From: an uncultured Gemmatimonadales bacterium
GTDB taxonomy: Bacteria > Gemmatimonadota > Gemmatimonadetes > Longimicrobiales > RSA9
DNA: 64,000 nucleotides
NCBI GenBank assembly: GCA_963798085.1
Contig: CAWCRS010000009.1
Location: forward strand, 96,001 to 160,000
Reading direction: 5' to 3'
Shown here in pieces: positions 38,639-60,950 of this stretch (position 1 is its first letter; each line of letters starts with the position of its first letter). Made by a program: the position numbers and the translations under genes. The notes under the pieces are model-generated. The model saw only the letters and a program-made list of their open reading frames with translations. It was not told the origin of the DNA and ran no database searches.

Positions 38639-39283
38639 TCACTTCCCGAAGGCCCTGCCCCCTGCGCCCGCGTACACGAAGCGGAATGTGACGCACCCGG
38701 GTTCCGCACCGGGGCAGTAGTAGCTGAGGATCTGGAGGCGGGCGTAGCGGCCGTCGGCGGTGCGCACGATCCAGGTGGAGGGACGCGGCCGCAGAATATG
38801 GCTGGTCCAGCTGTAGGCGTACCAGTGTGCTATTGCGGTGTTAGTGGAATCGCCGCGCGCACTGCTGGCCGTGTAGCCGGTATCGGGCGCGACAGGCACG
38901 GAATCGAAGGGCGTGTGCTGCAACTCGCGAATGCCACCCTGGCCGGCGAAACCCGCCCCGCCGTTGGCAATGATGTGGAAGCGGCGGAACGCCAGGTCCC
39001 AGCCCAGCGGGTCGCCGGGGGGGACCACACTGCCGCGCGAGAAGTCGAAATACTGCCACACATCAGGCGACGACGCGTCGATCGTGTACGTCACCGGCCC
39101 CAGCAGGCGGTCGCCGATCTCGACTGGTTGCGGCGGTGTGGGTGTAAAGACGGGCACGGAAGGGCGGCGCAGTGTCGACGCCACGAAGATCACGACGAGC
39201 AGCAGCAGCACCGTGACGATCACGATGCGCGCGGTCCGCCCGGGCGCCGCGCCGGCCGCTGCGGGCGCCCCGGGCTCGCTCAC
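38639..39283 (-). CDS. HmuY-family heme-binding protein with an N-terminal TM anchor
   Basis: WQYFDF, WDLAFRR..I..NGG, WYAY, VRTADGRYARLQILSYY. Confidence 0.88.
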   Translation of the reverse strand: MSEPGAPAAAGAAPGRTARIVIVTVLLLLVVIFVASTLRRPSVPVFTPTPPQPVEIGDRLLGPVTYTIDASSPDVWQYFDFSRGSVVPPGDPLGWDLAFRRFHIIANGGAGFAGQGGIRELQHTPFDSVPVAPDTGYTASSARGDSTNTAIAHWYAYSWTSHILRPRPSTWIVRTADGRYARLQILSYYCPGAEPGCVTFRFVYAGAGGRAFGK

Positions 39284-39323
39284 TGCCCGCGCCCACCCGC
39301 GGTTACGACCCGACCCGCCTCAG

Positions 39324-39530
39324 TCAGCGATCGCGCTCGTAGCCGAGGATGCGATTCAGTCGGCTCAGGTAGAACGCCAGACCCACGGCGAGCACGCCGA
39401 AAACGAGTGAGAAGACGAGCACACCCGCCCCGCCCTCCGCGCGGAACGCACGCGCTTCGTACAGCGAGAACCCCAGGCAGAACGCGATCGCCGTGGCGAT
39501 CAGAAAGCGATGAAAACTGATCAGCGACAA
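39324..39530 (-). CDS. Small two-TM membrane protein
   Basis: FHRFLIATAIAFC...; 68 aa, in operon orientation. Confidence 0.7.
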   Translation of the reverse strand: MSLISFHRFLIATAIAFCLGFSLYEARAFRAEGGAGVLVFSLVFGVLAVGLAFYLSRLNRILGYERDR

Positions 39531-39545
39531 GACTCACCATCCTTC

Positions 39546-39696
39546 TCTTCACCGCGGAGAGCGCGGAGGGCGCAGGTCAATGCTGGAGTAACGGATTGTC
39601 TTCAATGTACCACGCCATCGGTCGACGTTCTATGGGTGGGAACCGCCACAGAAACGCCATCAGCGCCTCGGCCCTCCGCGATCTCCGCGGTAAAGA
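39546..39696. repeat. Inverted-repeat-bounded intergenic element
   Basis: TCTTCACCGCGGAGAGCGCGGAGGGC (39546-39571) matches the reverse complement of 39671-39696 with two mismatches. Confidence 0.75.
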
Positions 39697-39701
39697 AGGG
39701 T

Positions 39702-40667
39702 CTAGTCGGTACCGACGAGCTCTTCTTCGAGGTCGTGGCTGAGGTGCTCGCGCAGTTCGGGATGTTCGTGCAGCAGATAACCGCCCATTACGAGCGCCGC
39801 GATGAGGTTGCCGACGATGATGGTCCACCACTGGATGGCATCCAGCAGCCAGGCGGCGACGATGGCGAGCAGGCCGATGAACATCACCTCGAGGGTGACG
39901 AAGAAGAGCACCATGCCCAGCAGCAGGGGCGGCTCGCGGCGGGCCGCTTCGGTCAGAGCGGACGCGATCAGGCCCACAGCCAGGAACGCGACCACGTGCA
40001 GGCCGGTGTAGCCCAGCACGGTCTCCAGGGTGATCTGCACTTCGTGCACGCCGCGGGCGCCGAAGAAGATCGCGGAGCCGAGGGCGCCGGGTGTGAAGAA
40101 CATGCGGCCGTGCACCAGGTCGAGCACGAGGAACCACACCATCACGGCAACGGCGCCCAGCAGACCGGCGACCAGGCCCTCGCGGATCGTGCGGTGCTCG
40201 CGCAGCGCATCGCGCAGCCGGGCCTTGGGCCAGGGCGATGTCATGTAGAGGTAGCGCATCAGCACGGAGCCGGCGATGAGGTTGCCCGCCAGCACGGCCG
40301 GCCAGCCCAGCTCGCGCACGACATTGGTGCCGGTGACGATCACACCTGCGTAGAAGATCATGTCGAACAGCAGGAACCCGAGCACCAGGCCAAGCAGGAA
40401 GTACGGCGGGATGTGGGCCCGGTCCAGCGTCCATGACACGGCAATGCCGACCAGGATGAACACCGTGAAGTGGAACGCCGTGTACATGGCGAGCAGCACG
40501 GCGCCCGGCTGCGCACCGTGCAGGTTGAGCAGTGCACTGGCGACGAAGGTGGGCGTGTAGAACGGCGTCGCGCGGGCCAGATCGATGGCCAGGAACCAGA
40601 GCGCGAGTGCTGCGGCGCCCACGAGTCCGGCAACGGCGCCCCGGGAAACGGATCCACTCCACTTCAT
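39702..40667 (-). CDS. Internally duplicated polytopic membrane protein
   Basis: Two halves, each G..AGL.GA.....WFL..D......F.TP...YT..H...GNLIA. Confidence 0.8.
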   Translation of the reverse strand: MKWSGSVSRGAVAGLVGAAALALWFLAIDLARATPFYTPTFVASALLNLHGAQPGAVLLAMYTAFHFTVFILVGIAVSWTLDRAHIPPYFLLGLVLGFLLFDMIFYAGVIVTGTNVVRELGWPAVLAGNLIAGSVLMRYLYMTSPWPKARLRDALREHRTIREGLVAGLLGAVAVMVWFLVLDLVHGRMFFTPGALGSAIFFGARGVHEVQITLETVLGYTGLHVVAFLAVGLIASALTEAARREPPLLLGMVLFFVTLEVMFIGLLAIVAAWLLDAIQWWTIIVGNLIAALVMGGYLLHEHPELREHLSHDLEEELVGTD

Positions 40668-40839
40668 GCTCGCCTCCGGGTCAGCACTCCAGCAGCATTC
40701 ACCGCGGCGGGCGCGGCGGATGCTGACAAAGTCGTGGAAACGACACGGCGCTGATTTCAACCATCTTTGCGTCCCGGCACCGGGGAACGCAATGCTGCAA
40801 TGAGACTGTACCCGCGCTTCCGCGTGCGCCGCGGCAGCG

Positions 40840-40998
40840 TCAGCGGTGCGGCGGAGTCGTGCTGGACTGCTGGCGGCTCAGGCGCTGCTGCTTGATGATG
40901 AACACGGCAATGGCCACACCCAGCGCCACGGGCGGCAGTGCCATGACGACGCCACCCCAGAACATGCCGGTCATCAGTGACTGCATCACGTCGTGCAT
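40840..40998 (-). CDS. 52-aa single-TM protein after oxidase subunit IV
   Basis: Hand translation MHDVMQSLMTGMFWGGVVMALPPVALGVAIAVFIIKQQRLSRQQSSTTPPHR; starts 7 nt after the subunit IV stop; below the ORF-track cutoff. Confidence 0.65.
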   Translation of the reverse strand: MHDVMQSLMTGMFWGGVVMALPPVALGVAIAVFIIKQQRLSRQQSSTTPPHR

Positions 40999-41005
40999 CG
41001 GATTC

Positions 41006-41317
41006 CTACCAGTGCTCGCGCAGCACGATCACCACGAGGATGACGGCGAGCGGGAAGGGTGCGGCCGCGAACAGCCAGAGTTTGCGCGGCTCGAACCTCA
41101 GGTGCATGTAGTACATCGCGACGAGCAGCGCCTTCCAGATGGCGAGCCCGACCAGGATGAGGATGAGAATGGTCTCGGGAAGTGCCGACAGGAACGCGAC
41201 ACCCAGTTCGGCCCCGGTCAGCACGCCCAGGATGACCCAGATCAGGTAGTAGTTGGGCGCCGCGTGTTTTGCCGGCTCCGCGGATGGCGAGCCATGATCC
41301 GACATGTTGGATGCCAT
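41006..41317 (-). CDS. ctaF: Cytochrome c oxidase subunit IV
   Basis: YYLIWVILGVLTGAE, KALLVAMYYMHLRFE. Confidence 0.88.
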   Translation of the reverse strand: MASNMSDHGSPSAEPAKHAAPNYYLIWVILGVLTGAELGVAFLSALPETILILILVGLAIWKALLVAMYYMHLRFEPRKLWLFAAAPFPLAVILVVIVLREHW

Positions 41318-41326
41318 GATCGCCTC

Positions 41327-41950
41327 CTAGATCAGGTAAACGATGGTGAACAGGATGATCCAGACCAGGTCCACGAAGTGCCAGTACAGTCCCATGATCT
41401 CGACACCGCCATAGCTGTTCTTCGTGTAGCCGCCTCGCCAGGCCTTGATGAGCGTGAACCAGAGGCAGAGCACGCCGATGGTCACGTGGGTTCCGTGGAA
41501 GCCGGTCATCGTGTAGAACGTGGCACCGTAGAGCGGTCCACCCAGCACGGTCTCGCCACCATGGCGGCCAACAGCGTGATAGAGCGACGCGACCGGGACG
41601 AAGCCTTCGTGCGCCAGCTTGTAGTACTCCACACCCTGAATGCCGAGGAACAGCATGCCGATCAGAGCTGTTGCCAGCAGGTATTTCTTCAGGCCGGCCT
41701 GGTTGCCCTGCTCGATTTCGGCGAACGCCTTCACCATGGTCACGCTGCTGCAGATCAGGATGAAGGTGTTGGCGGCGGTGAGCGCCACGTTCAGCACCTG
41801 GCCCGGCCGCGCGAACTGCTCGGGGTGCGCGAAGCGCAGAATGATGTACGAGCCGATCAGCGCCGTGAAGAACATCACCTCGGACAGCAGGAACACCCAC
41901 ATGCCCAGCTTCAGGTTGTACACACCGAAGCTGGAGTGTCCGCTCTCCAT
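41327..41950 (-). CDS. ctaE: Cytochrome c oxidase subunit III
   Basis: KLGMWVFLLSEVMFF, TGFHGTHV, GLYWHFVDLVW. Confidence 0.93.
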   Translation of the reverse strand: MESGHSSFGVYNLKLGMWVFLLSEVMFFTALIGSYIILRFAHPEQFARPGQVLNVALTAANTFILICSSVTMVKAFAEIEQGNQAGLKKYLLATALIGMLFLGIQGVEYYKLAHEGFVPVASLYHAVGRHGGETVLGGPLYGATFYTMTGFHGTHVTIGVLCLWFTLIKAWRGGYTKNSYGGVEIMGLYWHFVDLVWIILFTIVYLI

Positions 41951-42015
41951 TGTGGCCGCGGCTGCAGTGCGTCATTTCTTCGTGGCTCCTTTGCGTGAGT
42001 GCTGTGTCGCGTCCA

Positions 42016-43814
42016 CTAGTGGCCGCGTGGGGCACGGGCTGCCCCGTCGGCGGCTGCGTCTGCACAGGAAGTCGGCTTGTCCCGGGCGAGCTGTACTCGT
42101 ACGGGCCGCGATAGACCGTGGGCATCGCGTCGCCCCAGTTGCCGTGCGGCGGCGGCGAGGGCGTGGTCCACTCGAGCGAATTGGCTTCCCACGGATTCGT
42201 GCCCGCCTTCTTCCCGGCGAACAAGCTCCAGAAGAAGTTGAACACGAAGATGAACTGCGACAGCGAACAGCAGGAACGCGCTGATGGAAATGAACACGTT
42301 CGTGGCTGCATCGGCTTCAGGAAATGTGCGGATACTGCGTCGGATCGTACAGCCGCCGCATCATGCCCGCCGATGCCGAGCGAGTGCATCGGGAAGAACG
42401 TCAGGTTGAAGAAGATGAACGTGAGCCAGAAGTGGATCTTGCCCAGCGTGTCGTTCATCATGCGGCCGAACATTTTTGGGAACCAGTAACTGATCGCGCC
42501 GAAGATGCCGAACAGGCTGCCGCCGAAGAGCACGTAGTGGATGTGCGCGACGACGAAGTAGGTGTCGTGCAGTGGAATGTCGACCGGCGCTGCGGCCATG
42601 AAGATGCCGGACAGCCCGCCGATCATGAACAGCGCCGACGAAGCCGACAGCGCGTACAGCATGGGCGCGTGGAAGCGGATGTTGCCGCCCCACATCGTGC
42701 CCAGCCAGTTGAACATCTTGATGGCCGAGGGCACGGCAATCATCAGGGTGGTCACCATGAAGAGGCCGCCGAGCAGCGGGTTCATGCCGCTGACGAACAT
42801 GTGGTGGCCCCACACGATCCAGCCGATGAAGCCAATGCCGACGATGGCGCAGACCATCGGCGTGGTAGCCGAAGATCGGCTTGCGCGCGCCGTTGGCGAT
42901 GATGTCGGAGACGAAGCCCATGCGCGGGCAGGATCAGGATGTAGACCTCGGGATGGCCGAAGAACCAGAACAGGTGCTGCCAGAGCAGCGGCTGGCCGCC
43001 GCTGGCCGGCTTGAAGAAGCCGGTGCCGAGAGTCTGATCGAAGAACTGCAGGATCAGGCCGCCCGCGAGAACCGGCACGGCCGAGCAGCATGCAGCATCG
43101 ACGTGATGAACAGCGCCCACGTCGAGAGCGGCAGCCGGAACCAGGTCAGGCCCGGCGCGCGCATGTTGATCGAGCGTGGTGATGTAGTTCACCGAGCCCA
43201 TGAGCGACGAGAAGCCCAGAGGATCAGCGAGGCAGTTCCCACAGTCTGCTGCCCGAGGTGCACGCCGCTGTACTCGGGACTGACGCTGAGCGGCGCATAC
43301 GCCGGTCCAGCCCGGCATTGGCGGCACCGCCCACGCACGAACGAAGCTGGCCAGCATCAGCAGACCGGCCGGGCAAGGCCATCCAGAACGGACACCATGT
43401 TGAGCCGCGGGAACGCCATGTCGGGCGCGCCGATCTGCAGCGGGATCAGGAAATTCGCCCACACACCCGACAAGCAGCGGCATGATGGCGAAGAACACCA
43501 TGATCGTGCCGTGCATGGTGACCAGCGCATTGTAGAACTCCGGCAGCATCACGCCACTGGTCGACCATGGTCTCGGGGAACAGCTGGCGCCGGGCAGCGG
43601 ACGCGCGCGGATTGGACGGCCACGCCAGCTGCCACCGCATGGCCATGGCAAGCAGCCCGCCCACGAGCAGGAAGAACAGGCTCATGAACAGGAACTGGAT
43701 GCCGATGACCTTGTGATCGGTGGAGAAGATGTACTTGCGCAGGAACGGCATTTCTTCGTGCTCCCCGTGAGCGCCGTGGGGCCGGGACTCCTGCGCCATT
43801 GCGGCGGTGCTCAT
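42016..43814 (-). CDS. ctaD: Cytochrome c oxidase subunit I, A1 type; multiple frameshifts
   Basis: [64 protein letters not shown]. Confidence 0.93.
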
Positions 43815-44615
43815 GTTGTCGACTCCTCCGGTCTCTCGGTGCTCATGGCTGGTGGCTCGTCGTGGCCACCGCTGTGGGTGTAGCGGCTGGCGGGGGCGCG
43901 GCATTGCCTGCCGCGGCCAGGCGGGCGGCCTCGCTTCTCGGCGGCGGCCGCCGCCTGCTGCTGCGCGTTCCAGGACGCGAAATCGGCGGCCGAATGCACC
44001 GTCAACGCGCCCTTCATGCGGTAGTGACCCAGGCCGCACAGCTCGGCGCAGCCGATCGCGTAATCGCCGGTTTCCGTCGCCTGGAACCAGGCCTGGATGC
44101 GCATGCCCGGCACGGCATCCTGCTTCAGCCGGAAATTCGGCAGGAAGAAGGAATGGATCACGTCCTCGGACATGAGCGTGACCTGCACGGGCACACCCAC
44201 CGGCACGTGCAGCTGGTTGCGGCGCACGAAATCATCGGGCGTGCCCAGCTGCCCGTCCGCGCCCGGATACGTCACGTTCCACTCGAACTGCTTGGCAGTG
44301 ATGATCAGCTCGAGCCCGGGCGTGGGGAAATGCGCCGGATCCTTGATCCGCAGCCAGATGGGCCGGCTCAGGATGCCGATGTACACCATGATCAGCGCGG
44401 TGGCCGTGGTCCACAGGATTTCCATGCGGCTGTTCCCGTGCGTGTACTTCGCCCGCCGGCCGGGCCGCGCGCGGTACATGATCAGGAACGCGATCAGCAA
44501 CGCCTCGACGCCGAAGAACACGACCACCACGATCCAGTTGACCAGATGGAACAGGTGGTCAATGTCGGCGCCGAACGTCGAGACATTCGTGGGGAAAGTG
44601 CCAGAAGCGATCCAT
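43811..44615 (-). CDS. ctaC: Cytochrome c oxidase subunit II (CuA); both ends frameshifted
   Basis: HGNSRMEILWT, SEDVIHSF, CAELCGLGHYRM; no fused CxxCH domain seen. Confidence 0.92.
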
Positions 44616-44648
44616 GTCGCGTCTCCGTTGGCCTGGGTGCCGTGAGCG

Positions 44649-45531
44649 TCAGCGCTGCGCGGGCGAGGCGGGGACCGCCGCCGCCACGTGCCCGTGCCCG
44701 CCCGTCAGGTCGTGCAGGTCGATCGACTTTCGCCTTCGGCTCGACCGTCGCCATTGATGCGTTGTAGTCGAAGTTCACGGTAACAGTACCGTCAGGCGCG
44801 ACCGTGATCTGCCTGGTCTGCTTGCCGTACTTCTCGTGCCACGCCTCGAGTGTGTAGTCGCCGGGCGGCACGTTGCCGATGCTGAAGCTGCCATCATCGC
44901 CGCTCACCGCGAAGTAGGGATCGGACACGACATTGATCCACATGTGCATCCAGCCGTGCACGTCGCACTTCACGGCGAACGTCTCGGGCGAACTGAACGA
45001 CGTCGTGGTCACCATGGTCGTGGGCTGGCCGCGATTGAACTCGCGGTTGACCGTCGACTCGGTGTGGATGTTGTGCAGGATGCCGTCGCTGTTCTTGATG
45101 TCGACGTTCTCGCCCGCCATCACGCCCAGCACGTGCGGCACATAGATGCAGCCGTTCTGATCGATCGTGGTCTTGCCCGTGGGCGGGAACGTACCGGTCA
45201 GGCCCGCCGTGATGTGAATGAACACATTCTTGAGCTTGCCGTTGTTCGCGACCACGGTCTCTTCGGTCTGCGGCGTGGTGTGCTTGTCCGCGCAGGTCTG
45301 CTCGGCGCTCATGTCGATCGTCTTCATGGCCGGTGCCGTGCCCGCGAAATTGACGACACCACTGATGGTTCCGGCATTGGCGACTGCCGCCGGCGCTGCC
45401 GCTGCACCGCCCGCCGGTGCCGCGCCACCGCCCTGCGCTCCCTGCTGTCCACCACCGCCACCACCGCACGCCGTCAGTGCGCCCGCCAGAATCACTGCCA
45501 CCGCTCCGGTGGAAATGCGTGTATCGAACAT
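44649..45531 (-). CDS. Cupredoxin-like lipoprotein with carboxypeptidase-regulatory-like domain
   Basis: LTAC lipobox; DQNGCIYVPH, NSDGILHNIH, KCDVHGWM, VPPGDYTLEAWHE; 3' end uncertain. Confidence 0.8.
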
Positions 45532-45560
45532 CGTGCCTCCCGTCGAGGTGGTTGGAACCG

Positions 45561-47440
45561 TCATCCCTTGCGCCCGCCCTCGCGTTCCCGTCGCTGCGCG
45601 CGGCCCACGGCGAAAAGACCGAGGCCCGCGGTCAGCAAGGTGGCGAGGAGCGGCGTCGCATACAACGTCCTGGGCGCAGGTTGGCCCAGATACACGAAAT
45701 ACCAGGTGCTGAGCGAGCCCCTCGTGCCGTGCTCGCCATTGTCGCCGTCCCATGCGAAGAAGGCCACAGGAATGGGCTGGCCGGTGGCAAAGGTCAGCGA
45801 ATTCGTGGAATCCCCGGCCTGGAGCGGGCGCTTGAACACCACGCTCCACTGTCCCTGATCGAACTTCGACTGCGACGTGAGCTTGTTGCCGGCGCCCGGC
45901 AGCAGGTCAATGCGGCCCGGTCCCTTGCCCAGGTTCTCCGTGACCTGCCCGTTCATGGCCGTGCCACCCGCGGAACGGCTCTCCCAGCGCCAGAGGTACA
46001 CGGGCTCGCGCGTGTTGCCCATGAAGAAGTACGGCCGCTCCATGCCTGTGGGAATGCGCTGGGGGAACCAGAGTGCGAGCGCGTCCGGCGCAGGCGGCGC
46101 CATGGCCACGGCCCCTGCGGCAGCGGCGGCGGCCGGGCCCGCTGCGGCAGCCGAGGCGGCGGCGTCGCCTTCCTTCGGTTCCATGATCTCGGTCACGCGG
46201 TTGCGCCACTGCGACCAGATCGTGTCCGGGCTGTTCGAGCGATCGTCCCACTCGACACGGAGGGCGAGGTCGGTGCCGTTGTGGACGGCCTGCACCCAGA
46301 GCCCGGTGACGGCCGGCGAGAACCAGCGCGGCTTGACGATGACCTGGCCCACCAGCGGGATCCAGAAGCGCTCGGCCGCGTGCCATGCAGAATCATCAGG
46401 CGACGACGGGACCTCACCTTCGATCTTCTTCGCCTCGATCACTTCCTTCGGTTGCGGGGTGCCGGCGGGGGCGAGGCTGCGCACGTAGTAGGCAATGCCC
46501 CAGAGGTCCTCATCGGACACCACCTTGGCGTCGAGCGCGTCCGAGAAGGAAGGCATGGGCGTGCCGTCGAGGCCCGTGCGCAGGCGACGATAGATGTCCT
46601 CCACCGTGCCGCCGCCATTGAAGTACCAGGGCTGTGTCAGATCGGCGGGCCGGATGGGCCAGTTGTTGGCATCCTTCTGCGTGGGCGCGGACGGACCATC
46701 GCCGCGGCCCGCCTGGCCGTGGCACTTGAAGCACTGCAGCGTCTGATAGCCCTTGCGCCCTTTCTCGATCATGTCGGCGCTGCTGCCCGGCTGCTTGCTG
46801 AACTGCACGAGCTGCGGCTTGTCCGTCTGGAAGAAGTGCGAAAACGTCTTGATGTACGGCGACCAGGTTCTGCCGCTCCTGCGACGCTGAGCGCATCCTT
46901 CCAGCCGGGCATGGCCGTGCCCGGCATGCCGTTGTCGATGACGTGCAGGATGTCGTCATCGGTGGGCAGCGAGCCGGAGGCCGTGACGCGGATCTGGTAT
47001 TGCGCCTGCACGAAATTTCGGGGACGCGGCAACATGTAGTTGGAACCGGGCCCGTTGCCCGTGCCATCCACGCCATGGCAACCCGAGCACCATTTGTCGT
47101 ACGTCGCTTTGCCCGGGGCATCCTGGGCGGTGGCGCCAGAAACCAGGAGCGCAGTTCCTAACAGCATGGTAGACAGCGCGCGAGCCCCAGCAACGTTTCT
47201 CGGGCTGGGGCTGGGGCTCGGGCTGGCAATGACACGACGATTTGCGTTCGCGGCGTGATCCTCCGGCCGGCGCGACTCCGCGCGTGCGCAAACAGCGCCT
47301 GCGAACGCTGTCCGACCAACGGTGCGCTCAGACCGTTGCGCACTGGCTGAAGAGCCGCCCCCACGCGCGGCACTGCCGCAACGCATGTCCCAGCCCCAGC
47401 CCGAGCCCCAGCCCGAGAAACGCCTCTCAAGGTTGATCAC
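45561..47440 (-). CDS. Diheme c-type cytochrome fused to an EbdC/DOMON-like heme-binding domain; frameshifted
   Basis: CSGCH and CFKCH, GTAMP and GTPMP, RPYFFMG, WSVVFKRPL, VAFFAWDG, C-terminal TM. Start uncertain (GTG 47440 or near 47168). Confidence 0.85.
47194..47422. repeat. Inverted-repeat-bounded element at the 5' end of the cytochrome gene
   Basis: CGTTTCTCGGGCTGGGGCTGGGGCTCGGGCTGG ... CCCAGCCCCAGCCCGAGCCCCAGCCCGAGAAACG. Confidence 0.8.
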
Positions 47441-48243: not shown

Positions 48244-48260
48244 GGCCCGAGCCTCCGCCT

Positions 48261-51267: not shown

Positions 51268-51320
51268 ACGCTCCTGCCTGCCTTTGTGTCCGCGCCGACC
51301 CGGGCGCGTCTAACCGGGCG

Positions 51321-52708
51321 TTACTGCCTGAGGAAGAACGGCATGCGCTTCGAGAAGTCCACCGGCATTTCGCGGCGCACCGCTTCCATCACTTCAGGCG
51401 TGACTGCGGTGTAGCCGCGGTCGCGCGCGAACTGCTCAATGCGGGCACTCACCACGCCCCGCACGAAGCCGGGCACGCGCTCCAGTCTGGCTTTCGCTTC
51501 CGCCGACCACGCCATGGACGGACTCGCCGGCGCCTCGCCGTACGTGACCGCACGCGCGGGCTGCACCAGCGCTGCCGTGCCGCTCGGCTGGTACGCGCAC
51601 GACGCGTCTTCCGCCATGAAGTCGCCGGTATCGGCATAGGCGCGCGCGCGGCAGCCGCCGCACACCAGGCGATACTCACAGCGCCCGCAACGACCCCCCG
51701 GCTCTTCGCCGCGCAGCCGCGCGAACACGGGCGACCCGTGCCACACATCAGCGAACGATTGCGCGCGCAGATCCCCGGCGACCACGGGCATGTAGGGACA
51801 CGGCGTGAGCTTGCCTTCGGGCGTGATGCGGCAGTAGTGCACGCCGCACGGGCAGCGCGTGCCGTAGTTGAGCAGCGGCGATTCCGCGTCGCTCTCGTAC
51901 GCGTGGCGCATCAGCTGCGGCTGGCACTTCGAGCGCACCAGCATGCGGCCGCGATACACGCGTTCGAGCTGCGCCAGCTCACGCAGCACCGCTTCGTTTT
52001 CTTCCGGCTCGAGTCCGTGCATGGCTTCGCCACGACCGGTCGCGACCAGGAAGTAGACGTTGAACGAGACCGCGCCGCGCTCCGCCGCCCACGCGGCCAG
52101 GGCGCCGATCTCATGGCGGTTCCCGCGTGTGAGCGAGGTCTGCAGCACGAAGTCGAGCTGCTCTTCCGCGAGCCGGTCGATGGCAGCAAGGTGTCGCGCA
52201 GCGCGCCGCCGCCGTGGCGGAAGCGATCGTGGTAGCGCTCGTCCAGCGAATCAATGCTGACGGCCACACCTGTGACCCCTGCCTGCCGGAGCGAACGGAT
52301 GCGCTCGCTTGTGAGGCGAGTCCCGTTCGTGCCCACCACCACGGTGGCGCATTGCCTGCTCGCGTGCGCCGCAATGGTCTCGAGATCGTCGCGCAGCAGC
52401 GGCTCGCCGCCCGAAAGGATGAAGAGCGGCGCGGGTGTGAGCGCCAGGATTTCGTCCGCAATGCGCAGGCACTCGCGGGTCTGCAGTTCGCCATCCGTGG
52501 CGTGCCATGAGCCTGCCGCAATGTAGCAGTGCGCGCAGGCGAGGTTGCAGCGTCTGGTGAGGTTCCAGGCGACGACGTGCGGCAGGAATTCCGTCGGCTC
52601 GCCGGTGGTCTGCAAGGCCGGCGCGTCGCGTGTCGCCGTGGCGGACGTGCCGAAGCCGAGGCGGGCGTCCGCACTCGCGGCGGGCAGCACGGGCAAGCCC
52701 GGCTTCAT
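51321..52708 (-). CDS. Radical SAM/SPASM enzyme (NirJ/AhbD-like) with C-terminal PCP_red-like domain; one frameshift near 52190
   Basis: WNLTRRCNLACAHCY, SGGEP, CPCG..YCRITPEG...PCPY, CGRCEY...CGGCRARA; tail WSAEAKARLERVPGFVR. Confidence 0.9.
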
Positions 52709-54942
52709 GCCTGATGCTCCATTGCGCTGCGCATGCCGGGTGCGTCTGCGAATTGCGTCTCTTCGCTCAACGCGCATCGCCTCCCTGCGTGCTCATGAAC
52801 TGCTCGATGGCGGCTTTCGCATCGCGCAGGCGATGCGGTCTTGAAATCGACCGGGCAGGCGCTCGCCTTCTCCGCGACATCGCGGATCGGACAACGCGTC
52901 ACACCCGCCGCCTTCGCTTCCTCGATGAAGCGGCGCATCTCCGGAGTGAGGCCATCCACACCCTCCGCCGCGGCGCGCAGCTGCTTCGTCTGCAGCTCGC
53001 GGAACATCACGAGCATGGTGTCCATGTCGAATGTGTCGGCCTCGATCATGGCCTGCTTGTTCTCGTCCATCACGTGCGTGGTGACGCGCCAGAAGCTGTG
53101 CTCGCGCGCGAATTTCTCGACCGTATTGCGTGCCAGCGGCCGCGCGATGAGCGGTACCAGCTGCAGTCGCTCGAACGCTTCCCGCGTCCACACGACGGGG
53201 TCCGTGGCATTGCGCTCGCGCGTCTGCACGTGACCCGTGTACGGACACTTCACGGTGATCATGGGCGTCGCTGGCAGGGCGTCGTCGTCCAGACCTTCGA
53301 CCACGGTGCGCGTCATGGCCTGCTGCGCCTTCACTTCCGCGAGCGCCAGCTCCTCCGCCGTGCCAATGCCCATGATCAGCTGCATGTGTGTGGGCAGCAG
53401 CTTGCGGATCGCCTCATCGAGGCGCTCGTTGGTGACCATGGGCAGTGCCGCAGGTCCCGCGGCGCTCGCACCATCGGCCTTGTCGTGGGCGCCGCCGGCG
53501 AAGCGCCGTTGCCGTTCAACTGCGCACCGTTGCCGTTGCCGTTCTCGTGCACCGCGTTCGCCGAAGCGTTGTTGCCGCTCGTGCCGTTCGCGCGGCCGGC
53601 CGCCTCACCGGCGTAGGTGCCGTTCGCGCCGGCGCCGTAGTTGTCGAGCACGAACTCCTCGACCGCCTTGCGCGCAATACCCAGCGCGAAGGGCGGCACG
53701 CGCAGGATGCGCACTTCCGCTTCCGGCGCCCATTCGAGACCGGTCTCGCCGTCTTCCTCGATCCAGGGAATCTCGTCGGGGCGCACATCGGTGGTGCCGA
53801 TCAACAGCACGTTAGTGTCCGTCAGGCGGCACAGGTTCTCCGCCTGCGAGCCGATGTCCGTGCCCTCGATGCGGTGGCCGCCGTGGCGGGCCAGAATGAG
53901 CAGCGACGGCTGCACTTCCTCGACCCACTGCAGGATGCACTGGAACGGCTTGCCGATGAGGATCTGCGTCTTGAGCGGCACGGCGGGATGGCGCTCGTGC
54001 ATCACTTCGGCGCGCTTGAGATTCGCCTGGCAGAGACTGCAGCAGGCCCTTGTCGATGATGTTGTTGTGCAGCTCTTCCTGCTCCTCGAACTTGAACACC
54101 TTCGAGGCCTGCACGGAGAGCACATCCTTGATGTTGCCGAACACGGCGTGGTGGTACTCGACATCGAACGCGGAGCAGGCATAGAGCGTGGCGTCGTACT
54201 GCTCGGCCATCTCCAGCGCCACGCGCATGGCCTTGTAGGCGTAGGACGAACCGTCGATGCAGACCATCCAGCTTGCCGCCGCGCAGCGGCCGGTCGTTGC
54301 GCACGACCAGCACGTCCTTCTCCACATTGCGCAGCACGCGCGCGGTGACGCCGCCCATCTGCGACAGTGGCTGGCGGCCGATGCCGTGCCGCCAATGCAG
54401 AGCAGGTCGTACGCGCGGCCGCTCGCAGCCGGCCAGCTTCTCGTCCTGCTCTTCGTCTTCCGCGATGAGGCGGCCGTTCTCGCCGATCTTCACATCGCTG
54501 CGCACGCTTCGCGCCGCCATCGTACTTGTCCGCGATGTTGGGATCGAAGCCGATCAGGCTGGGCAGCCGGCCCTCGCCCGCGGTTCACTTCGCGGATGAT
54601 CTCCTCGTAGTTGATGCCCTCGAGGAGCTGCCGCGTCATGGGCACACCCGCCGCCTCGCACTTCTTCGACGCCTGGTCAGGAACGAGTCGGAGATGAGCT
54701 GCAGTCCCTTCTCGATCAGCTTGTCGTGGATCTTGCGCTGCTTCCGGATCTCGTCCGGCGTCTGGAAACGCGCGGGCAGCCCCGTCTCCAGCTGGCGGAA
54801 GCGGATGTCGTGCAGGCGGGCAGCGTATACGTGATTGGCGGTGATGCGGCCACCGGTGCGCGGTGCACAGCTCGATGGCGCGGTCGATGGCCAGCAGCGA
54901 CTCGGTCGAATTGTCGACCGGTACAATGACTTCACGATACAT
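52705..54942 (-). CDS. Tandem universal-stress-protein domains fused to two PCP_red-like domains; multiple frameshifts
   Basis: IVPVDNS, CIDGSS, RHG.H......IGSQAENL; EWAPEAEVRILRVPPF and WTREAFERLQLVPLIAR; ATGA overlap with the radical SAM gene. Confidence 0.82.
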
Positions 54943-55253
54943 GACGCCTCGCGCTCGGAGTCAACGAAAGCTCGCCCCGAAAAACGCTGCACGGGCATAC
55001 ACACCACCCGCGTGGCGGCGCGGTCAACTCAACGCGCCGTCCGAGCGCTCCTCGAAGCGTCTATCCCGACAGTTGCGACGTGAACGAACCTCAGATTCCC
55101 GAACTTCCATATCGGTACCAGCGCCGCAGCGCCGGCCGGATTCACTCGAGCGCCTGACTCGCCCCCGTTTGTGCGGTTGGCGAGGCCGATTCGTGCCGGG
55201 CGTCAGAACGTCGTGCTGATGTCGGGAAAAACCCGGCGGCGAAGTCGGGGGTG

Positions 55254-55283
55254 AGAATACCGGGCCGCTTCCGCGAGTGTCAA
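55254..55283 (-). promoter_or_regulatory. Sigma70-like promoter upstream of the USP-to-oxidase operon
   Basis: Minus strand TTGACA (55283-55278), 18 bp spacer, TATTCT (55259-55254). Confidence 0.65.
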
Positions 55284-55327
55284 GGCCACGCGCACGGTGT
55301 TTTCAGGGCGAAAAACGACATTGCGCG

Positions 55328-56056
55328 CTACCGTCCATCGGCGCGGGCAAGGCTGCGCTGCAGGCGGGGCGCAAGCAGAGCGGTGAGTGTGATTGCCAGC
55401 AGGATCCAGGCGACGAGTGCTCGTCCGTGCACCGGCCACGTTCCGGCCTGCGCGCGGAGTGCCTCGTGCAGCGCGCGGAACGGTGCGGCCGCCTGAACGC
55501 GCGCACCCATCGAGTGCGTGACGGGTGTGCGGAAGACGCCCGAAGCGTGCAGCAGCAGCAGTGCCGCCACCGCCGCGAACAACGCGCCCTCGCCCACGGA
55601 CCTGGCCAGCGCGGCGATCCACAGCCCGAGCAGGTTGCTGATGAGCAGCGATCCCAGCAGCACAGCGGGCAGGCCGATCCAGGCGATGCCGGATGCGCGC
55701 GCGGCGACCAGGATCAGCGCGCTGCCGGGAAGCAGCTGGACGAAGTCGACTGCGGCGCCCGCGAACGCCCGGCCCAGCAGCACGCCCGCCGGCGAGAGCG
55801 GCGTGAGTACGAGTCGTCGCACCAGACCGCGCTCCGCATCGCGCAATGCCGGGATGGCGGCGCCGAACGTGCCGAACAGCGTGAACAGCACCGCGTAGAC
55901 CGCGGACGCGTGCACCAGCGGCGCGCCGCCCAGCGCGAGCGCCGCAACCAGCACGGAAGGCACGAAGATGTTGAGCGCGAACAGCCGGCGCCGCCGTGCA
56001 CTGCGCTGCCATTCGACGCGCCAGACCAGCGGCAGCGACCGAACGCGTGAACTCAT
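55328..56056 (-). CDS. ABC-2 type transporter permease
   Basis: RDAERGLVRRLVLTP, SGVF; about six TM segments. Confidence 0.85.
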   Translation of the reverse strand: MSSRVRSLPLVWRVEWQRSARRRRLFALNIFVPSVLVAALALGGAPLVHASAVYAVLFTLFGTFGAAIPALRDAERGLVRRLVLTPLSPAGVLLGRAFAGAAVDFVQLLPGSALILVAARASGIAWIGLPAVLLGSLLISNLLGLWIAALARSVGEGALFAAVAALLLLHASGVFRTPVTHSMGARVQAAAPFRALHEALRAQAGTWPVHGRALVAWILLAITLTALLAPRLQRSLARADGR

Positions 56057-57013
56057 GCGTGCCCGTTTGCTGCTGGCTTCGCGATTGCGTCGTCGGTCCC
56101 GCTGCTCAGCTCTTCGCCGGTGAGGCGGCGGAACACATCGGCCAGCCCGGGCTCGCGCACGCGCACGGACAGGATACGCGCACCCGAGCGCACGAGCGCG
56201 GCGCAGATGTCGGGGAGCACGTCGGCGCCGCGCGCACTCGCGAACACGAGCCCGGATTCGCCCGGCGATGCACGCACGCCAGCGGGCAGATCCGCGGGTG
56301 GCGGAACGGGTGATGTCCAGCTCCACATCGATGCGCGTCTCGCCTGCGACGGAGCGCAGCAGCGCCTGCGCAGGCGAATCCGCGACCTTGCGACCGCGAT
56401 GCAGGAACACAATGCGCGTGGCGAGCGCGGCCGCGGCCGCATCGTTCGTGGCCAGCACCACGGCCGCGCCAGCCTGTGTCCGAGATTGCAGTTCCGCCGT
56501 CAGCGCGAGCAGTGCAGCCGGGTCCAGCCCGATGGTCGGCTCGTCCAGGAGCAGCAGCGCGGGTGCATGCGCCATGGCTTCCACGAGCGCGAGCTTGCGG
56601 CGCATGCCGAACGAGTACTCGCCCGCCGCCACACCGGCATCCGCGGCCAGGCCGAACGCCGCGAGCAGCGCATCGACCGCGCGCGGGCCGGCACCGTTGG
56701 CACGAGCGAAAAAGACGGCGTTCTCGCGGCCGCTCAGCTCGTCGAAGTGGGCCGCCTCATCGGGCGCGTAGCCGAAACGACGCAGAGCCGGAGCGGCATC
56801 GTCGCCTGCAATCCGGTGCCGCGCACCACGCGACGGCGCCAGGTCACCGGCGAGGATGCGCAGCAGCGTGCTCTTGCCGGAACCGTTGGGTCCGAGCAGC
56901 GCCAGCGTTTCGCCCGCGTGCACGGTGAGGTCAATGTCGTGGAGCGCGTCGCGGCCGGAGGCAAAACGGAAGCTCGCGCGCGTGAGAGAGACGAGCGGGG
57001 AAGCCTGCGTCAC
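56053..57013 (-). CDS. ABC transporter ATP-binding protein; frameshift near 56300
   Basis: GPNGSGKS, YSFGMRRK, LLLDEPTIGLD, C-terminal EPGLADVFRRLTG. Confidence 0.9.
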
Positions 57014-57052
57014 GGGTCCCGGCCGCCGGCCGCCTCGCCCGCCTGCACGGCG

Positions 57053-57583
57053 TCACATCCCTTCCAGGCCCAGCTCGGTGCGCGCGCGATCCATGACCTC
57101 GGGCGAGATCACGGCGATGCCGTGCTCTTTCGCGTAGTCCGCGTAGATGCGCTTCACCATGCCGCGCACGAAGCCGGGCACCTTCGCGAGTCGTTCCTGC
57201 GCAGCACCATCCCACGTGACGGACAGGGCAGGCGACGCCACGGTTTCCGTTGCCGGCGCCGCTGCGGGCATGGCCGCGGCCGCGGCAGCATGCGGCGCCA
57301 TCCCGCCCACTAACAGCTCGTGAGGCGACGACTCCGTGAACACATCGCTGCGCGCGTCCGCGAGCGTGCTGCGCGTCATTTCCATGGGCTGCTCGGGCAC
57401 GGCGCGCCCGCCAATGCGCACGCCCAGGCTGCTCACCAGCTGCGTTTCCATGGGATTGGTGAGCATGGCGATCTCGTGGCCGCAGCGTGGACACGCGAAG
57501 ACGGCGGCCAGTGTGCCATCACCCGGCACCTGGCGCTCCGCGAAGGCCATCACTTCGTCGCAACCAATGCAGAGGAATTTCAT
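57053..57583 (-). CDS. Zinc-ribbon plus PCP_red-like domain protein
   Basis: MKFLCIGC...CPRC...MLTNPMETQLV; tail WDGAAQERLAKVPGFVRGMVK. Confidence 0.85.
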   Translation of the reverse strand: MKFLCIGCDEVMAFAERQVPGDGTLAAVFACPRCGHEIAMLTNPMETQLVSSLGVRIGGRAVPEQPMEMTRSTLADARSDVFTESSPHELLVGGMAPHAAAAAAMPAAAPATETVASPALSVTWDGAAQERLAKVPGFVRGMVKRIYADYAKEHGIAVISPEVMDRARTELGLEGM

Positions 57584-58476
57584 GCGGCGTTCCTGCCGCC
57601 GTTCTCGCGCTCGACGCGATCCGCGAGACGGGCGAAGGCGTGGGCCGCGGGCGAGCCGGGCGCCTGCAGCACGAAAGGTTGACCGCGATCCGTCGCCTGA
57701 CCCAGCGCCGGCTCGAAGGGCACATCGGCCCACACCTCGAGTCCCGTCTCTGCGGCCAGCGCGCGCGCGCCATCCGCATCGAACAGCACGCGCGTCTCGC
57801 CGGTGGAGTCGACGTACGCAACCATGTTGGCGACAATGCCGACCGGCGAGATGTTCGCATCGCGCAGCAGGCGAGCGGACTTGGACACGACGAAGCGCGC
57901 GATCTCGGCGGGCGTCGTGACCAGCAGCGTCTGCTGCGGCTGCGGCAGCAGATCGAGCAGCCGCGCAATGCGATCCGTGCCGGGCGGCACATCGAGCAGC
58001 AGATAATCCAGCTCACCCCACACGACATCGGAGAGGAATTCGCGCAGCACGCCCGTCTCCGCGACGCCTCGCCAGATGAAGCCGTCGCCCGTGGGCGCGC
58101 GCCAGCGCAGCGGCGCGTCGTCCTCCTGCAGCAGGTCCATCGACATCACGCGCACACCGCCCGTATTCACGGCCGGCTGCACGCCCTCCTCGTCATCGCG
58201 CAGCTGTGCGCCGGCCACCCCCAGCATGCGTCCCAGCGATGGGCCGTTGAGGTCGGCATCCAGCGCACCCACAAGCGCACCGCGACTGGCGAGCGCCGTG
58301 GCCAGGTTCGCGGTGATGGCGCTCTTGCCCACGCCGCCCTTGCCGCTGAGCACGGGAATGATGGCGCGCACGCCTTCCAAACGGCGTGTCAGGCGGGCGC
58401 GCTGATCCAGCACCTGCTCGAGAATCTGCGAGCCGGTCTCGTGCGCAACTTCGTGGTAGGTACGGATCTTTCTCAT
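57580..58476 (-). CDS. Mrp/ApbC/NBP35-family P-loop NTPase
   Basis: SGKGGVGKS, DADLNGPS, WGELDYLLLDVPPGT, VANM. Confidence 0.9.
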   Translation of the reverse strand: MRKIRTYHEVAHETGSQILEQVLDQRARLTRRLEGVRAIIPVLSGKGGVGKSAITANLATALASRGALVGALDADLNGPSLGRMLGVAGAQLRDDEEGVQPAVNTGGVRVMSMDLLQEDDAPLRWRAPTGDGFIWRGVAETGVLREFLSDVVWGELDYLLLDVPPGTDRIARLLDLLPQPQQTLLVTTPAEIARFVVSKSARLLRDANISPVGIVANMVAYVDSTGETRVLFDADGARALAAETGLEVWADVPFEPALGQATDRGQPFVLQAPGSPAAHAFARLADRVERENGGRNAA

Positions 58477-58736
58477 GGCACCAGCTGTGCGCCGCTCTCG
58501 TCGAACAGCGTCAACGCGGAAACCGGACAGGAGCGACACGATTCGAGCAACCGCTCGCGCTCGATGGTGGCATTGCCATCGCAGAAGACGACGACGCCTT
58601 CCACGCCCATGCGGAACGTCTCCGGCGCCAGGTCGACGCAGGTCTCGAACGCAACGCAGAGGCTGCGGTCAATGCGCACGAGCAGTCCGCCGATGCTGCG
58701 TTCCTCGAAATGCTCCACCGTCGCCTGGTCCGTCAA
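58473..58736 (-). CDS. Single-cluster ferredoxin (3Fe-4S-like)
   Basis: IDRSLCVAFETCVDLAPETF...SCPVSAL. Confidence 0.85.
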   Translation of the reverse strand: MTDQATVEHFEERSIGGLLVRIDRSLCVAFETCVDLAPETFRMGVEGVVVFCDGNATIERERLLESCRSCPVSALTLFDESGAQLVP

Positions 58737-58764
58737 TGCGCGTGGCGAAGCGGTTCGCCCGCGA

Positions 58765-59073
58765 TCAGGTGCGCGAGCCGGGCTCCTCGAAGGGGAACGG
58801 CAATTCCGACTGGCGTGGGCGAGCGAGGGGCGGCACGCGCGGCTTCTCCGGACGTCGCGCCGGACCCTGCCAGCCGCAGTGCACGCAGAAGCGCCACTCC
58901 GCCCAGGGAAGCACCCAGCGCAGCCAGCGCTTGCGCTGCGGGAAGGTCGAACCGAAGCAGGCCGGGCACTCGACTACCGGCCGCAACAGCAGTGCTGCGC
59001 CCAGCGCGAGCAGCAACCCGCGCAGCAGCACGAGGCCGAGAAGCACGAGAACGGCGAGTTCGGAGGGGTCCAC
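58765..59073 (-). CDS. Small membrane-anchored zinc-ribbon protein
   Basis: N-terminal TM, CPAC and CVHCGW; GTG start after GAGG. Confidence 0.7.
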   Translation of the reverse strand: MDPSELAVLVLLGLVLLRGLLLALGAALLLRPVVECPACFGSTFPQRKRWLRWVLPWAEWRFCVHCGWQGPARRPEKPRVPPLARPRQSELPFPFEEPGSRT

Positions 59074-59246
59074 ATTCCACCTCGACGGCCACCGCACACG
59101 GTCGCGCGCGTGTGAGCGCGACCTTCAACTCGCGTACACCTTGCCGACGCGCTGCGTTCGGCGCGCATACGCACCGCACGGAACAACGGGCAAGGAGCGG
59201 ACCAGCACCCCTGGACCGACTCCCACGTTCCCGTGGCAGAGCTCCA

Positions 59247-59543
59247 CTAGTGATGCGCTGCCCTCATGATGCGCACGCCAACGATGCGGAACGCGATCTT
59301 CGCGAGCAGCGGCAGCAGCAGGACGGTCAGCGCGCAGGCGAAGATGACCGCGCCAATGGGCGGCACTACGGAGTTGAGTCCCAGGCGCAGGAGGTACCAG
59401 ACCACGAGGTACAGCACCAGCGTACCCGCCAGGCCGAGCAGATGACGCCCGCCGCCACCACCTTCGATCTGGATCGGGAACCCACCCAGGTACAGTGCGG
59501 CCACGCTCCAGAACAGCGCGAGCGGTGCGAGCCAGGCGACCAC
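59247..59543 (-). CDS. Small three-TM membrane protein
   Basis: GTG start after GGAGG; appears fused to hemL in the ORF track only because of the hemL frameshift. Confidence 0.7.
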   Translation of the reverse strand: MVAWLAPLALFWSVAALYLGGFPIQIEGGGGGRHLLGLAGTLVLYLVVWYLLRLGLNSVVPPIGAVIFACALTVLLLPLLAKIAFRIVGVRIMRAAHH

Positions 59544-59664
59544 GTTGACCTCCGTCAATGCGTCGGGTTGCGTTTGGTGTCGGGAAACGGCCCGCCGGAC
59601 ATGCCGCGGGCCGCGCGGCGAGGATCGTACGCGCTCGGCGCGCGCGTGACAAGCGGCGTGCGGG

Positions 59665-60950
59665 CTAGCGGGCCCGCACCATGGCTTCGCGGGCCGCAAT
59701 GCGGAACCGCTCCAGCTCGGCATCGCCGTGCGCAACCGACACGAACGCCGACTCGAAGGGCGATGGTGCCAGGTAATGCCGCCCTCGAGCATGGCGCGGA
59801 AGAAGCGCGTGAAGCGCTCCCGGTCGCATGCGGCCGCGCCCTCCCAGTCCAGCACCGGCTGCGACGAAAAGAAGAAGCCGAACATGGAGCCGATCGCGGA
59901 TACCACGATCGGCACACCGGCGTCGTTGGCCGCGGCCTCGAGCGCCTGCGCGGTGTTGCGCGCCGTGTCCTCGAGCGTGGGCCAGACGCCGGCCTTGTCC
60001 AGCGCCTCGAGCGTGGCCAGTCCCGCGTGCATCGTGACCGGATTGCCGGAGAGCGTGCCTGCCTGGTAGACGGGGCCGGCGGGTGCGACGCGCTCCATGA
60101 TCTCGCGACGCCCGCCGAACGCACCCACCGGCAGGCCGCCGCCGATCACCTTGCCCAGCGTGGTGAGGTCCGGGGTCACGCCATACCGCGCCTGGGCGCC
60201 GCCCGGCGCGACGCGGAAGCCGGTCATCACCTCATCGAAAACCAGCAGTGCGCCATGCTCGGTGGTAATGCGACGCAGCTCCTGCAGGAACGTGGGCCGG
60301 GGCAGCACCAGACCCATGTTGCCCGCGACCGGCTCGACCAGCACGGCCGCGATCTGACCGGGATTCGCCTCGCACAACGCACGCACGGAGTCCGCATTGT
60401 TGTAGCGCGCCACGAGCGTGTCCGCGACCGTGGCCGCGGGTACACCCGGCGAGTCCGGCAGTCCCAGCGTCGCCACGCCCGAACCTGCCTGCACCAGCAG
60501 CATGTCCGCGTGCCCGTGATAACAGCCTGCAAACTTGATGAGCTTCGTGCGACCGGTGAACGCGCGCGCCACGCGGATCGTGCTCATGACCGCCTCGGTG
60601 CCCGAGCTGACGAAGCGCATGCGCTCGAGACTGGGCATACGCGACTGGATCTTCTCGGCGAGTTCGATCTCCGCTGTGGTGGGCGCGCCGAAGCTGGTGC
60701 CGCGTCTGGCTGCGTCGGCAATCGCGCGCAGGACGGCAATGTGCGCGTGACCCAGAACGAGCGGGCCCCAGGACAGGACGTAGTCGACGAAGCGGTTCCC
60801 GTCCGCGTCGATCACATACGCGCCTTCGCCCCGCTGAATGAACAGCGGGTCGCCACCGACCGAACGGAACGCGCGAACCGGCGAGTTGACGCCGCCCGGA
60901 AACAGCGCGAGCGCCTTCTGGAAGAGGCGGGCAGAGGTCTCGGTCTTCAT
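59665..60950 (-). CDS. hemL: Glutamate-1-semialdehyde 2,1-aminomutase; frameshift near 59770
   Basis: PGGVNSPVRAF, SSGTEA, FDEVMTGFR, LGKVIGGGLPVG, YQAGTLSGNP; C-terminus LAPSPFESAF in a second frame. Confidence 0.95.

Follow-up and report, generated by a model that had tools for sequence, protein, structure and literature searches.

What does a cytochrome bd-like protein that lacks a CydB partner do at the head of an operon for an ordinary aa3-type oxidase, in bacteria without nitrite oxidoreductase (NXR)? The question is raised by a locus on the minus strand at positions 38639-60950 of a 64,000-nucleotide stretch of DNA, hereafter the window (G000:C9:96001-160000), from an assembly of 6.2 Mb in 12 contigs that is 90% complete. 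The closest named relatives of the locus are Gemmatimonadota, as an initial annotation of the window had supposed for the host. The role of such bd-like (OR-N) proteins is debated in Nitrospira, Nitrospina, anammox bacteria, and manganese oxidizers, where they are seen either as terminal oxidases or as agents of reverse electron flow. A single-copy module placed before an ordinary aa3 oxidase in NXR-less bacteria separates this module from nitrite chemistry and offers an operon compact enough to express and assay. Its position in the operon suggests that the module feeds the aa3 oxidase, with no tie to nitrite, and we put at roughly 45% the probability that a lone OR-N2-type bd-like protein and three c-type cytochromes form a front end that supplies a dedicated aa3 oxidase with electrons.

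The initial annotation described about 24 consecutive minus-strand genes from hemL to a HmuY gene. Pfam and NCBIfam scans, together with tblastn using intact proteins of a same-genus locus, confirmed that order with 23 co-oriented genes; the only plus-strand coding-like guanine-plus-cytosine (GC) pattern inside the locus is a single frame of 124 codons. Loci for comparison were the best 80 of 597 genome loci, nearly all from Gemmatimonadota, and 80 Nitrospira-type loci from a separate metagenome scan, with gene frequencies referring to the 54 loci that have a full upstream flank or the 42 that have both flanks. From the bd-like gene through ctaF, the genes are collinear in 56 of the 57 loci that extend 8.5 kb or more downstream, and the order of usp, radical SAM gene, and bd-like gene is kept in 64 of the 65 that extend 4.5 kb or more upstream; both counts have the same single exception, a locus whose title does not name Gemmatimonadota. 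Gene order is thus conserved elsewhere, far beyond chance, and the proposed coupling to an A1 oxidase stands. The conserved unit comprises the genes for Mrp, a PCP_red zinc-finger protein, ferredoxin, a universal stress protein (USP), the radical SAM enzyme, the bd-like protein, three c-type cytochromes, a cupredoxin, and ctaCDEF. The island was first drawn more widely: its core genes hold, but hemL (6/54) and a pair of ABC transporter genes (16/54) are passengers outside the unit. Collinearity with relatives is the sole evidence by which a chimeric join appears excluded. Because the GC content of the locus (0.64 to 0.71) is ordinary for the genome (contigs, 0.64 to 0.68), we rejected a compositional island.

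The first gene of the module (49273..51017, 7 frameshifts, ends approximate) encodes a membrane heme protein with homology to CydA (PF01654, 59 bits; hhalign probability, 99.6). Residue-level tests were run on intact relatives rather than on the frameshifted copies of the source genome, and for this protein positions are numbered by Escherichia coli CydA and counted over 77 relatives. The model of one intact relative (P0001; predicted local distance difference test score [pLDDT], 92) has the CydA fold, with 14 helices of at least 23 residues, the first of them signal-like, and it matches CydA chains (Z 32-34), then CydB, ActF of alternative complex III (ACIII; Z 21-23), and PsrC (Z 15). Counterparts of His19 (H61), His126, His186, and Glu107 (E148) are kept in 77/77, so that both fold and these four residues are shared with canonical cytochrome bd (qOR, CydAB). 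In contrast to that enzyme, the Glu99 counterpart is a tyrosine (Y141) in all 77 and the Glu445 position aligns to serine (S523) in 75 of 77; Met393 is paired, at low confidence, with a residue that varies. We take His186, Met393, and Glu445 to be heme ligands in CydA, whose proton channel includes Glu99 and Glu107. Further invariant residues of the bd-like protein that are candidate ligands are H381, M390, K393, M515, M518, and H530. The Q-loop is also absent in both model and alignment, with four extra helices in its place, as are K252 and E257. No cydB lies next to the bd-like gene. The only cydB of the genome sits beside a canonical cydA on contig C5, and the bd-like protein falls outside the canonical CydA clade in trees, all of which were built by FastTree; it is not a canonical CydA whose cydB lies elsewhere.

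By sequence, the protein is a member of the OR-N family. Nitrospira-type loci contain two bd-like paralogs, of which the cytochrome-flanked one, recognized by its gene order (the NIDE0901 position) in PMC6606698 rather than by accession, is about 50% identical to the Gemmatimonadota protein and the upstream one about 33%. Since it shares this identity and 20 of 20 tabulated positions with the cytochrome-flanked paralog, the protein probably belongs to the OR-N2 subfamily. The suggestion in the initial annotation of a Nitrospira-type, CydB-less bd-like protein is borne out to this extent, although the tree, which separates the protein from the upstream paralog (Shimodaira-Hasegawa support, 92), does not make it sister to the cytochrome-flanked one. 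An Atlas search returned Nitrospirota-dominated bd clusters. Features given for OR-N2 in bioRxiv 10.1101/2021.01.16.426971, as far as its accessible text goes, are likewise found here: 14 helices, a kept His19, missing quinol-site residues, six residues between two proton-channel positions, and, often, no second cydA-like gene. The main text of that paper names Nitrospira, Manganitrophus, and Chloroflexi and draws no link to a heme-copper oxidase; its supplement may list Gemmatimonadota. Among 61 related genomes, each carrier has one OR-N gene and no OR-N1 partner. Natural fusions of a bd-like protein with a C-terminal cytochrome c (P0122, P0126, and P0137) lend support to a physical association of the module's first two genes. 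The label given to the protein by standard pipelines is "cytochrome bd subunit I," and counts of bd oxidases in the phylum may therefore be inflated.

Three cytochromes follow, and the five CxxCH motifs of the locus, all of them heme c sites, are invariant in relatives. A membrane-anchored diheme cytochrome c (48261..49064; CxxCH at 48888 and 48491, conserved in 73/73) precedes a membrane monoheme cytochrome c (47437..48243; CxxCH at 47745, conserved in 70/70) and a diheme cytochrome c fused to an EbdC/NxrC-like (EB_dh) domain with a C-terminal anchor (45561..47200; CxxCH at 47089 and 46733; PF09459). The N-terminal half of the third protein matches PDB 6h5l_B (E 3e-51), which we take to be an anammox diheme protein, and its C-terminal half matches EbdC (2ivf_C), with a TIGR03477 score of 90 bits against a cutoff of 170. 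The EbdC/NxrC-like protein first reported here stands as a domain match, though probably not as a heme site. Of the two residues that we presume to be axial heme ligands in EbdC and NxrC, lysine occurs at its position in 0/66 relatives and methionine in only 32/67 (alignment to 2ivf_C), so the domain is probably heme-less; in two Nitrospira loci that we read, by contrast, a lysine within that motif is kept. The next gene (44494..45531) encodes a lipoprotein with a type-1-copper-like His/Cys/His/Met set, invariant in 62/62, and a beta-sandwich domain. It is a cupredoxin by motif, its structural match to a blue copper protein being weak (E 0.042). Complex prediction for the EbdC-like cytochrome, the cupredoxin, and CtaC scored 0.00, which is no answer and counts neither way.

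The oxidase itself is encoded by ctaC (43811..44600; COX2, TIGR02866 over cutoff), for a CuA subunit II, ctaD (42016..43811; 12 frameshifts, ends approximate), for an A1 heme-copper oxidase subunit I, and ctaE and ctaF (41006..41950; COX3, COX4_pro), for subunits III and IV. The CtaD of the source genome scores 638.7 bits against TIGR02891, just under the cutoff of 670.75. What we take to be the A1 motif set (six histidines, PEVY with its cross-link tyrosine, and the D- and K-channel residues) is invariant in 60/60 relatives, including the D-channel Asp/Asn and the K-channel Lys. In CtaC, the CuA ligands H, C, C, H, and M are present in 60/60 and a CxxCH after the CuA motif in 0/60; that is, the oxidase is not of the caa3 type. 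We compared 20 hand-picked other A1 operons, 10 chosen for a nearby ActD or cytochrome b match and 10 being second oxidases of carriers, and all 18 readable CtaC tails carry a cytochrome c. The module-linked CtaC must therefore receive electrons from a separate donor, for which the operon has a gene immediately upstream. ACIII heads all six sister-genome A1 operons picked for an ActD match near ctaD, and a same-strand cytochrome b is present in all four picked likewise, directly upstream in two. In this phylum, then, an accessory A1 operon often has a quinol:cytochrome c oxidoreductase at its head or attached to it.

Module and oxidase are inherited together in an asymmetric way. The bd-like gene is carried by 22 of the 61 relatives and by 73 of 251 genomes sampled across the phylum (about 29%). 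The ctaD clade (at least 66% identity) is found in 24 of the 61, namely, all 22 carriers and two genomes in which the contig breaks off within the EbdC-like gene. Across the 251 genomes sampled from the phylum, the clade was counted in 70, a number that missed the frameshifted source genome. Of the 73 bd-like carriers, 68 have the oxidase clade (67 scored plus the source genome), and the remaining 5, cut by contig ends, lack a full oxidase match; among the 73, a bd-like module without the aa3 clade was never demonstrated. The oxidase does occur alone, in three genomes of one family (f8; L301, L302, and L303), as stand-alone ctaCDEF accompanied by ctaA and, in two of them, by ctaB; module, cupredoxin, and cassette are gone. 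These oxidases nest inside the module-linked clade in a tree of 42 rows, which therefore points to module loss. Three genomes that carry the main operon (G170, G116, and G137) also have a second, paralogous bd-like module (L271, L272, and L273) of about 49% identity, in a separate clade and with no adjacent cta genes. Cupredoxin genes lie upstream of this paralogous module in L271 and L272, and L272 also has a gene for an 850-aa single-CxxCH protein. One record titled Gammaproteobacteria (L106) has an operon and protein that nest among those of Gemmatimonadota, and is probably a mislabeled bin.

Taken together, the shared slot in the operon, a CtaC without cytochrome c, a module not seen without its oxidase, the loss of two glutamates, and the want of an evident periplasmic donor lead us to favor an arrangement in series. 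Menaquinol would reduce the b-hemes of the bd-like protein through a candidate non-canonical quinone site; electrons would pass to the mono- and diheme cytochromes and on to the diheme part of the EbdC-like protein, whose heme-less domain would act as a scaffold, and then through the cupredoxin to CuA and O2. In function, the module would add another kind of complex III, in series before aa3. We infer this direction of flow, the quinone chemistry, and the formation of a complex from the observed gene set, its order and co-inheritance, and the residues and fold of its proteins. In support, the module fills the position held by ACIII or cytochrome b in sister operons, and the canonical O2 site appears altered (E99 to Tyr in 77/77, E445 to Ser in 75/77). 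A periplasmic donor is not evident either: a type II dimethyl sulfoxide (DMSO) reductase over the TIGR03479 cutoff occurs in 0/61 relatives, a narG-type gene in 3/61, and the EbdC lysine in 0/66.

Several observations weigh against the arrangement in series. ACIII coexists with the module: 59 of 61 relatives have ActD, as does the source genome (contig C10), and cytochrome b matches occur in 33/61, without mutual exclusion with the module, so we rejected the module as a replacement of ACIII or bc. In the complete genome G037 and five other carriers, the oxidase of the operon is the sole A1 subunit I found and presumably also takes electrons from ACIII. The quinol-site residues K252, E257, and D239 lack counterparts, the first two aligning to non-equivalent residues. 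All 20 tabulated positions are identical to those of the cytochrome-flanked Nitrospira paralog, a proposed terminal oxidase, including in cultured strains without another oxygen reductase (PMC12342949), and the published view is that OR-N draws electrons from cytochrome c (PMC10839748). The module stands without an adjacent aa3 oxidase in L279, in the paralogous clade of L271 to L273, and in 80/80 Nitrospira-type loci, many of them short. One relative that is 96% complete (G029) has the USP-PCP_red gene (G029:C88:4937-6913), and in it the bd-like gene and the oxidase clade were not found. More generally, a single ancestral acquisition followed by block losses would give co-occurrence without functional dependence, kin not being independent.

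The main rival explanation, and a real possibility, is that the two enzymes work in parallel, as in the branched chain suggested by the initial annotation. The bd-like protein would then itself be a cytochrome c:O2 oxidoreductase, perhaps of high affinity and perhaps a homodimer, and an ACIII-fed pool of cytochromes and cupredoxin would split between it and aa3. The missing quinol site fits a cytochrome c donor (bioRxiv 2021.01.16.426971), and the residue set is that of the Nitrospira candidate. ACIII is near-universal, and a canonical cydA was not seen in 12 of the 22 carriers. In five carriers (G037, G043, G057, G049, and G021), in all of which the oxidase of the operon is the sole A1 subunit I found, actD shares a contig with the bd-like gene at a distance of 23 to 39 kb. 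Although the H19, H126, H186, and E107 counterparts are invariant (77/77), those of E99 and E445 are lost, and a CydB or OR-N1 partner is lacking; nor would a parallel branch lead one to expect that, in 73 phylum carriers, the module is never shown without aa3 while the reverse occurs. To our knowledge, oxidases of different affinity sharing one operon would be unusual. Anammox bacteria, which are described as strictly anaerobic, also carry the module (PMC3578206).

Another route, which we consider decidedly improbable, would make the module a branch point for an outside high-potential periplasmic donor (a metal, sulfur, or nitrogen compound), with entry at the EbdC-like protein, a downhill path via the cupredoxin to aa3, and an uphill path via the bd-like protein to quinone. 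A cupredoxin gene ahead of coxB reportedly also characterizes the rus operon of iron oxidizers, which this gene order recalls. All three relatives with a narG-type gene (G002, G011, and G024) are module carriers, too few to interpret, and a role of this kind has been proposed for the module in nitrite and manganese oxidizers (PMC6606698; bioRxiv 2021.11.15.468770). Yet no donor-oxidizing enzyme recurs in the 80 loci (by a reference set and several loci read), no periplasmic type II DMSO reductase exceeds its cutoff, and the entry heme ligands of the EbdC-like domain are lost. A link to NXR or Nar was rejected on the counts of narG-type and type II DMSO reductase genes among the relatives and on the source genome, where neither narG nor a type II DMSO reductase found a match. 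The genome search called for in the initial annotation thus came up empty for these two but recovered ACIII and cydAB, along with cytochrome b, a caa3 oxidase, and a ba3-like oxidase.

Much of this builds on systems already described. The module is known from Nitrospira (PMC6606698; bioRxiv 2020.07.02.185504), from Nitrospina and Kuenenia, where cupredoxins and a zinc finger accompany it (PMC3578206), from Nitrospinota (PMC10839748), and, as TO_1, from Manganitrophus (bioRxiv 2021.11.15.468770); extra cydA copies are reported in anammox metagenome-assembled genomes (PMC9325076), and PMC13189123 merely names the OR-N class. We compared the Nitrospira bd-like_2/alt_NxrC_1 and bd-like_3/alt_NxrC_2 clusters, the Nitrospina/Kuenenia cluster, and Manganitrophus TO_1. 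All share with our locus a bd-like gene followed by two c-type cytochromes and an NxrC-like protein, and the Nitrospina/Kuenenia cluster also shares cupredoxin-like and zinc-finger genes. The Gemmatimonadota operon, in contrast, has no NXR and no OR-N1 partner, and ctaCDEF lies directly downstream; none of the 80 Nitrospira-type loci showed the USP/radical SAM/Mrp cassette within 10 kb. That the module genes are conserved has been interpreted as favoring a part in nitrite oxidation (PMC3578206; PMC6606698). Operons for ACIII-caa3 and Rieske/cytochrome b-caa3 likewise place a quinone-side membrane module ahead of ctaCDE, but the present operon differs in showing no sequence homology to Act subunits, in lacking an Fe-S or Rieske subunit, and in having an aa3 oxidase without cytochrome c, and its quinol oxidation is putative. 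Homologues of ActA to ActF are not in the operon; the bd-like protein resembles ActF in fold only (Z 21-23), and a shared fold shows no function.

The idea that bd-like proteins might work like ACIII is already in PMC3578206, and one Gemmatimonadota survey suggests that the phylum may harbor novel modules of complex III. As far as their accessible texts go, surveys of Gemmatimonadota (PMC9426454, PMC11651109, PMC10581226, and PMC11316326) mention caa3, cbb3, or bd and not this operon. We found no publication on OR-N coupling to aa3 or on OR-N purification, in a search that left subscription journals largely outside, and a classification supplement may cover the coupling; none of the papers cited here characterizes an OR-N protein. 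The undescribed system proposed at the outset therefore narrows to a variant: PMC3578206 already describes the module together with its cupredoxin and zinc finger, and what we did not find in the literature is the fixed coupling, in bacteria without NXR, of this module to both an aa3 oxidase and a PCP_red/radical SAM cassette. It is a more doubtful proposition that the OR-N2 module is a third complex III architecture on a cytochrome bd scaffold, running forward in about 29% of sampled Gemmatimonadota and in reverse in nitrite oxidizers and anammox bacteria, with its heme perhaps tailored by its own radical SAM cassette.

That cassette lies upstream of the bd-like gene. It consists of a single-cluster ferredoxin (58473..58736; Fer4_13; 51/54 loci), an Mrp/ApbC-like P-loop NTPase of the Fe-S carrier type (57580..58476; PF10609, 223 bits, under NCBIfam equivalog cutoffs; 52/54), a zinc-ribbon and PCP_red protein (57053..57577; PF08369 over cutoff, the zinc ribbon weak; 52/54), a triple-Usp, double-PCP_red protein identified by Pfam (52705..54942; 7 frameshifts), and a radical SAM/SPASM enzyme with a C-terminal PCP_red domain (51321..52777; 1 frameshift). 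The USP gene occurs in 24 of 61 relatives, namely, all 22 bd-like carriers, G030, and G029, and the 3 PCP_red matches of the source genome all fall within the operon. The nearest NCBIfam matches of the radical SAM enzyme are NirJ2 (TIGR04055, 288 bits) and AhbD (TIGR04545, 274 bits), both below the cutoff of 500. It shares with these enzymes the radical SAM and SPASM cysteines (conserved in 74 to 75 of 75) but differs in scoring about half the cutoffs and in its extra PCP_red tail, and the genome has a ferrochelatase and a chlorite-dismutase/ChdC-family gene too. Most likely the PCP_red-tagged cassette makes or tailors heme for the module. The initial annotation had described a dedicated maturation cassette, possibly with its own cofactor-building genes. 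We rejected a self-contained cassette for maturing the oxidase; ctaA and ctaB lie outside the operon on contig C3, and the cassette therefore cannot build the heme a of that oxidase.

Eight genes of the locus are frameshifted in the source assembly. Measured against congener proteins, there are at least 33 frame switches (ctaD, 12; bd-like gene, 7; usp, 7; cytc1, 2; cytc2, at least 2; and one each in rSAM, cNxrC, and abcA), and there is none in the cupredoxin gene, ctaC, ctaE, ctaF, abcP, mrp, or the gene for an eight-transmembrane (8-TM) protein. That the locus is decaying and the frameshifts are genuine is unlikely, although the density is high: at least 33 switches in about 14 kb of locus genes, compared to 9 elsewhere in the genome, in 4 of 17 matches over about 7,900 residues, where lower-identity queries may undercount (an 18th row, the ctaD of the locus itself, was left out). 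Sequencing error seems the likelier cause, since the indels are mostly clustered single-base insertions and the frame segments, which are free of large deletions, retain 50 to 100% identity to the congener (in most, more than 65%); other genes of the same genome are frameshifted as well. Decay would in any case concern the source assembly alone, the system being intact in relatives.

The remaining genes of the locus are loosely attached. Glutamate-1-semialdehyde aminomutase (hemL; 59665..60950; NF000818, 608 bits against a cutoff of 398) is frameshifted near its C terminus and is a neighbor rather than a core gene; the open reading frame at 59247-60950 (567 aa) is hemL fused by frameshift to the next small membrane gene. 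It may be part of a wider heme-synthesis region, because the ferrochelatase and ChdC-family gene lie on the same strand at G000:C9:175546-177900, 15 to 18 kb beyond the window end. Two small genes at 58765..59543, found by tblastn and without a Pfam match, encode a 97-aa membrane protein (10/54) and a protein of about 110 aa with a CxxC pair (8/54) and are also neighbors. The variable passengers at 55328..57013, assigned by Pfam, are an ABC exporter ATPase with one frameshift and an ABC-2 permease. Downstream of ctaF, a variable tail (39324..41001) holds a 53-aa membrane peptide, a duplicated 8-TM membrane protein, and a 69-aa membrane protein, present in 6, 23, and 30 of 42 loci, respectively; the 69-aa gene travels with ctaCDEF, following ctaF in module-less operons also. 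The HmuY-family heme-binding protein (38639..39283; PF14064) is loosely linked (21/42) and often upstream and inverted.

Scans of other kinds returned little: no Rfam match, nothing in a plasmid comparison at E 1e-12, and one promoter site, upstream of usp, against 1.8 expected. Elsewhere in the window, all on the minus strand, are a frame at 32623-33400 that we presume to be SURF1-like, an 822-aa outer-membrane barrel with a carboxypeptidase-regulatory-like domain (34628-37096) that lies 1.5 kb past HmuY and was not found in the 80 related loci, a DJ-1/PfpI-family gene (37660-38300), and a glyoxalase-family gene split over two frames (62174-62711). On contig C7 of the same genome (L154; G000:C7:963000-973500), a 1000-aa molybdopterin protein is encoded next to a putative [NiFe]-hydrogenase operon, which, with its maturation genes, we presumptively recognized by eye from the translations.

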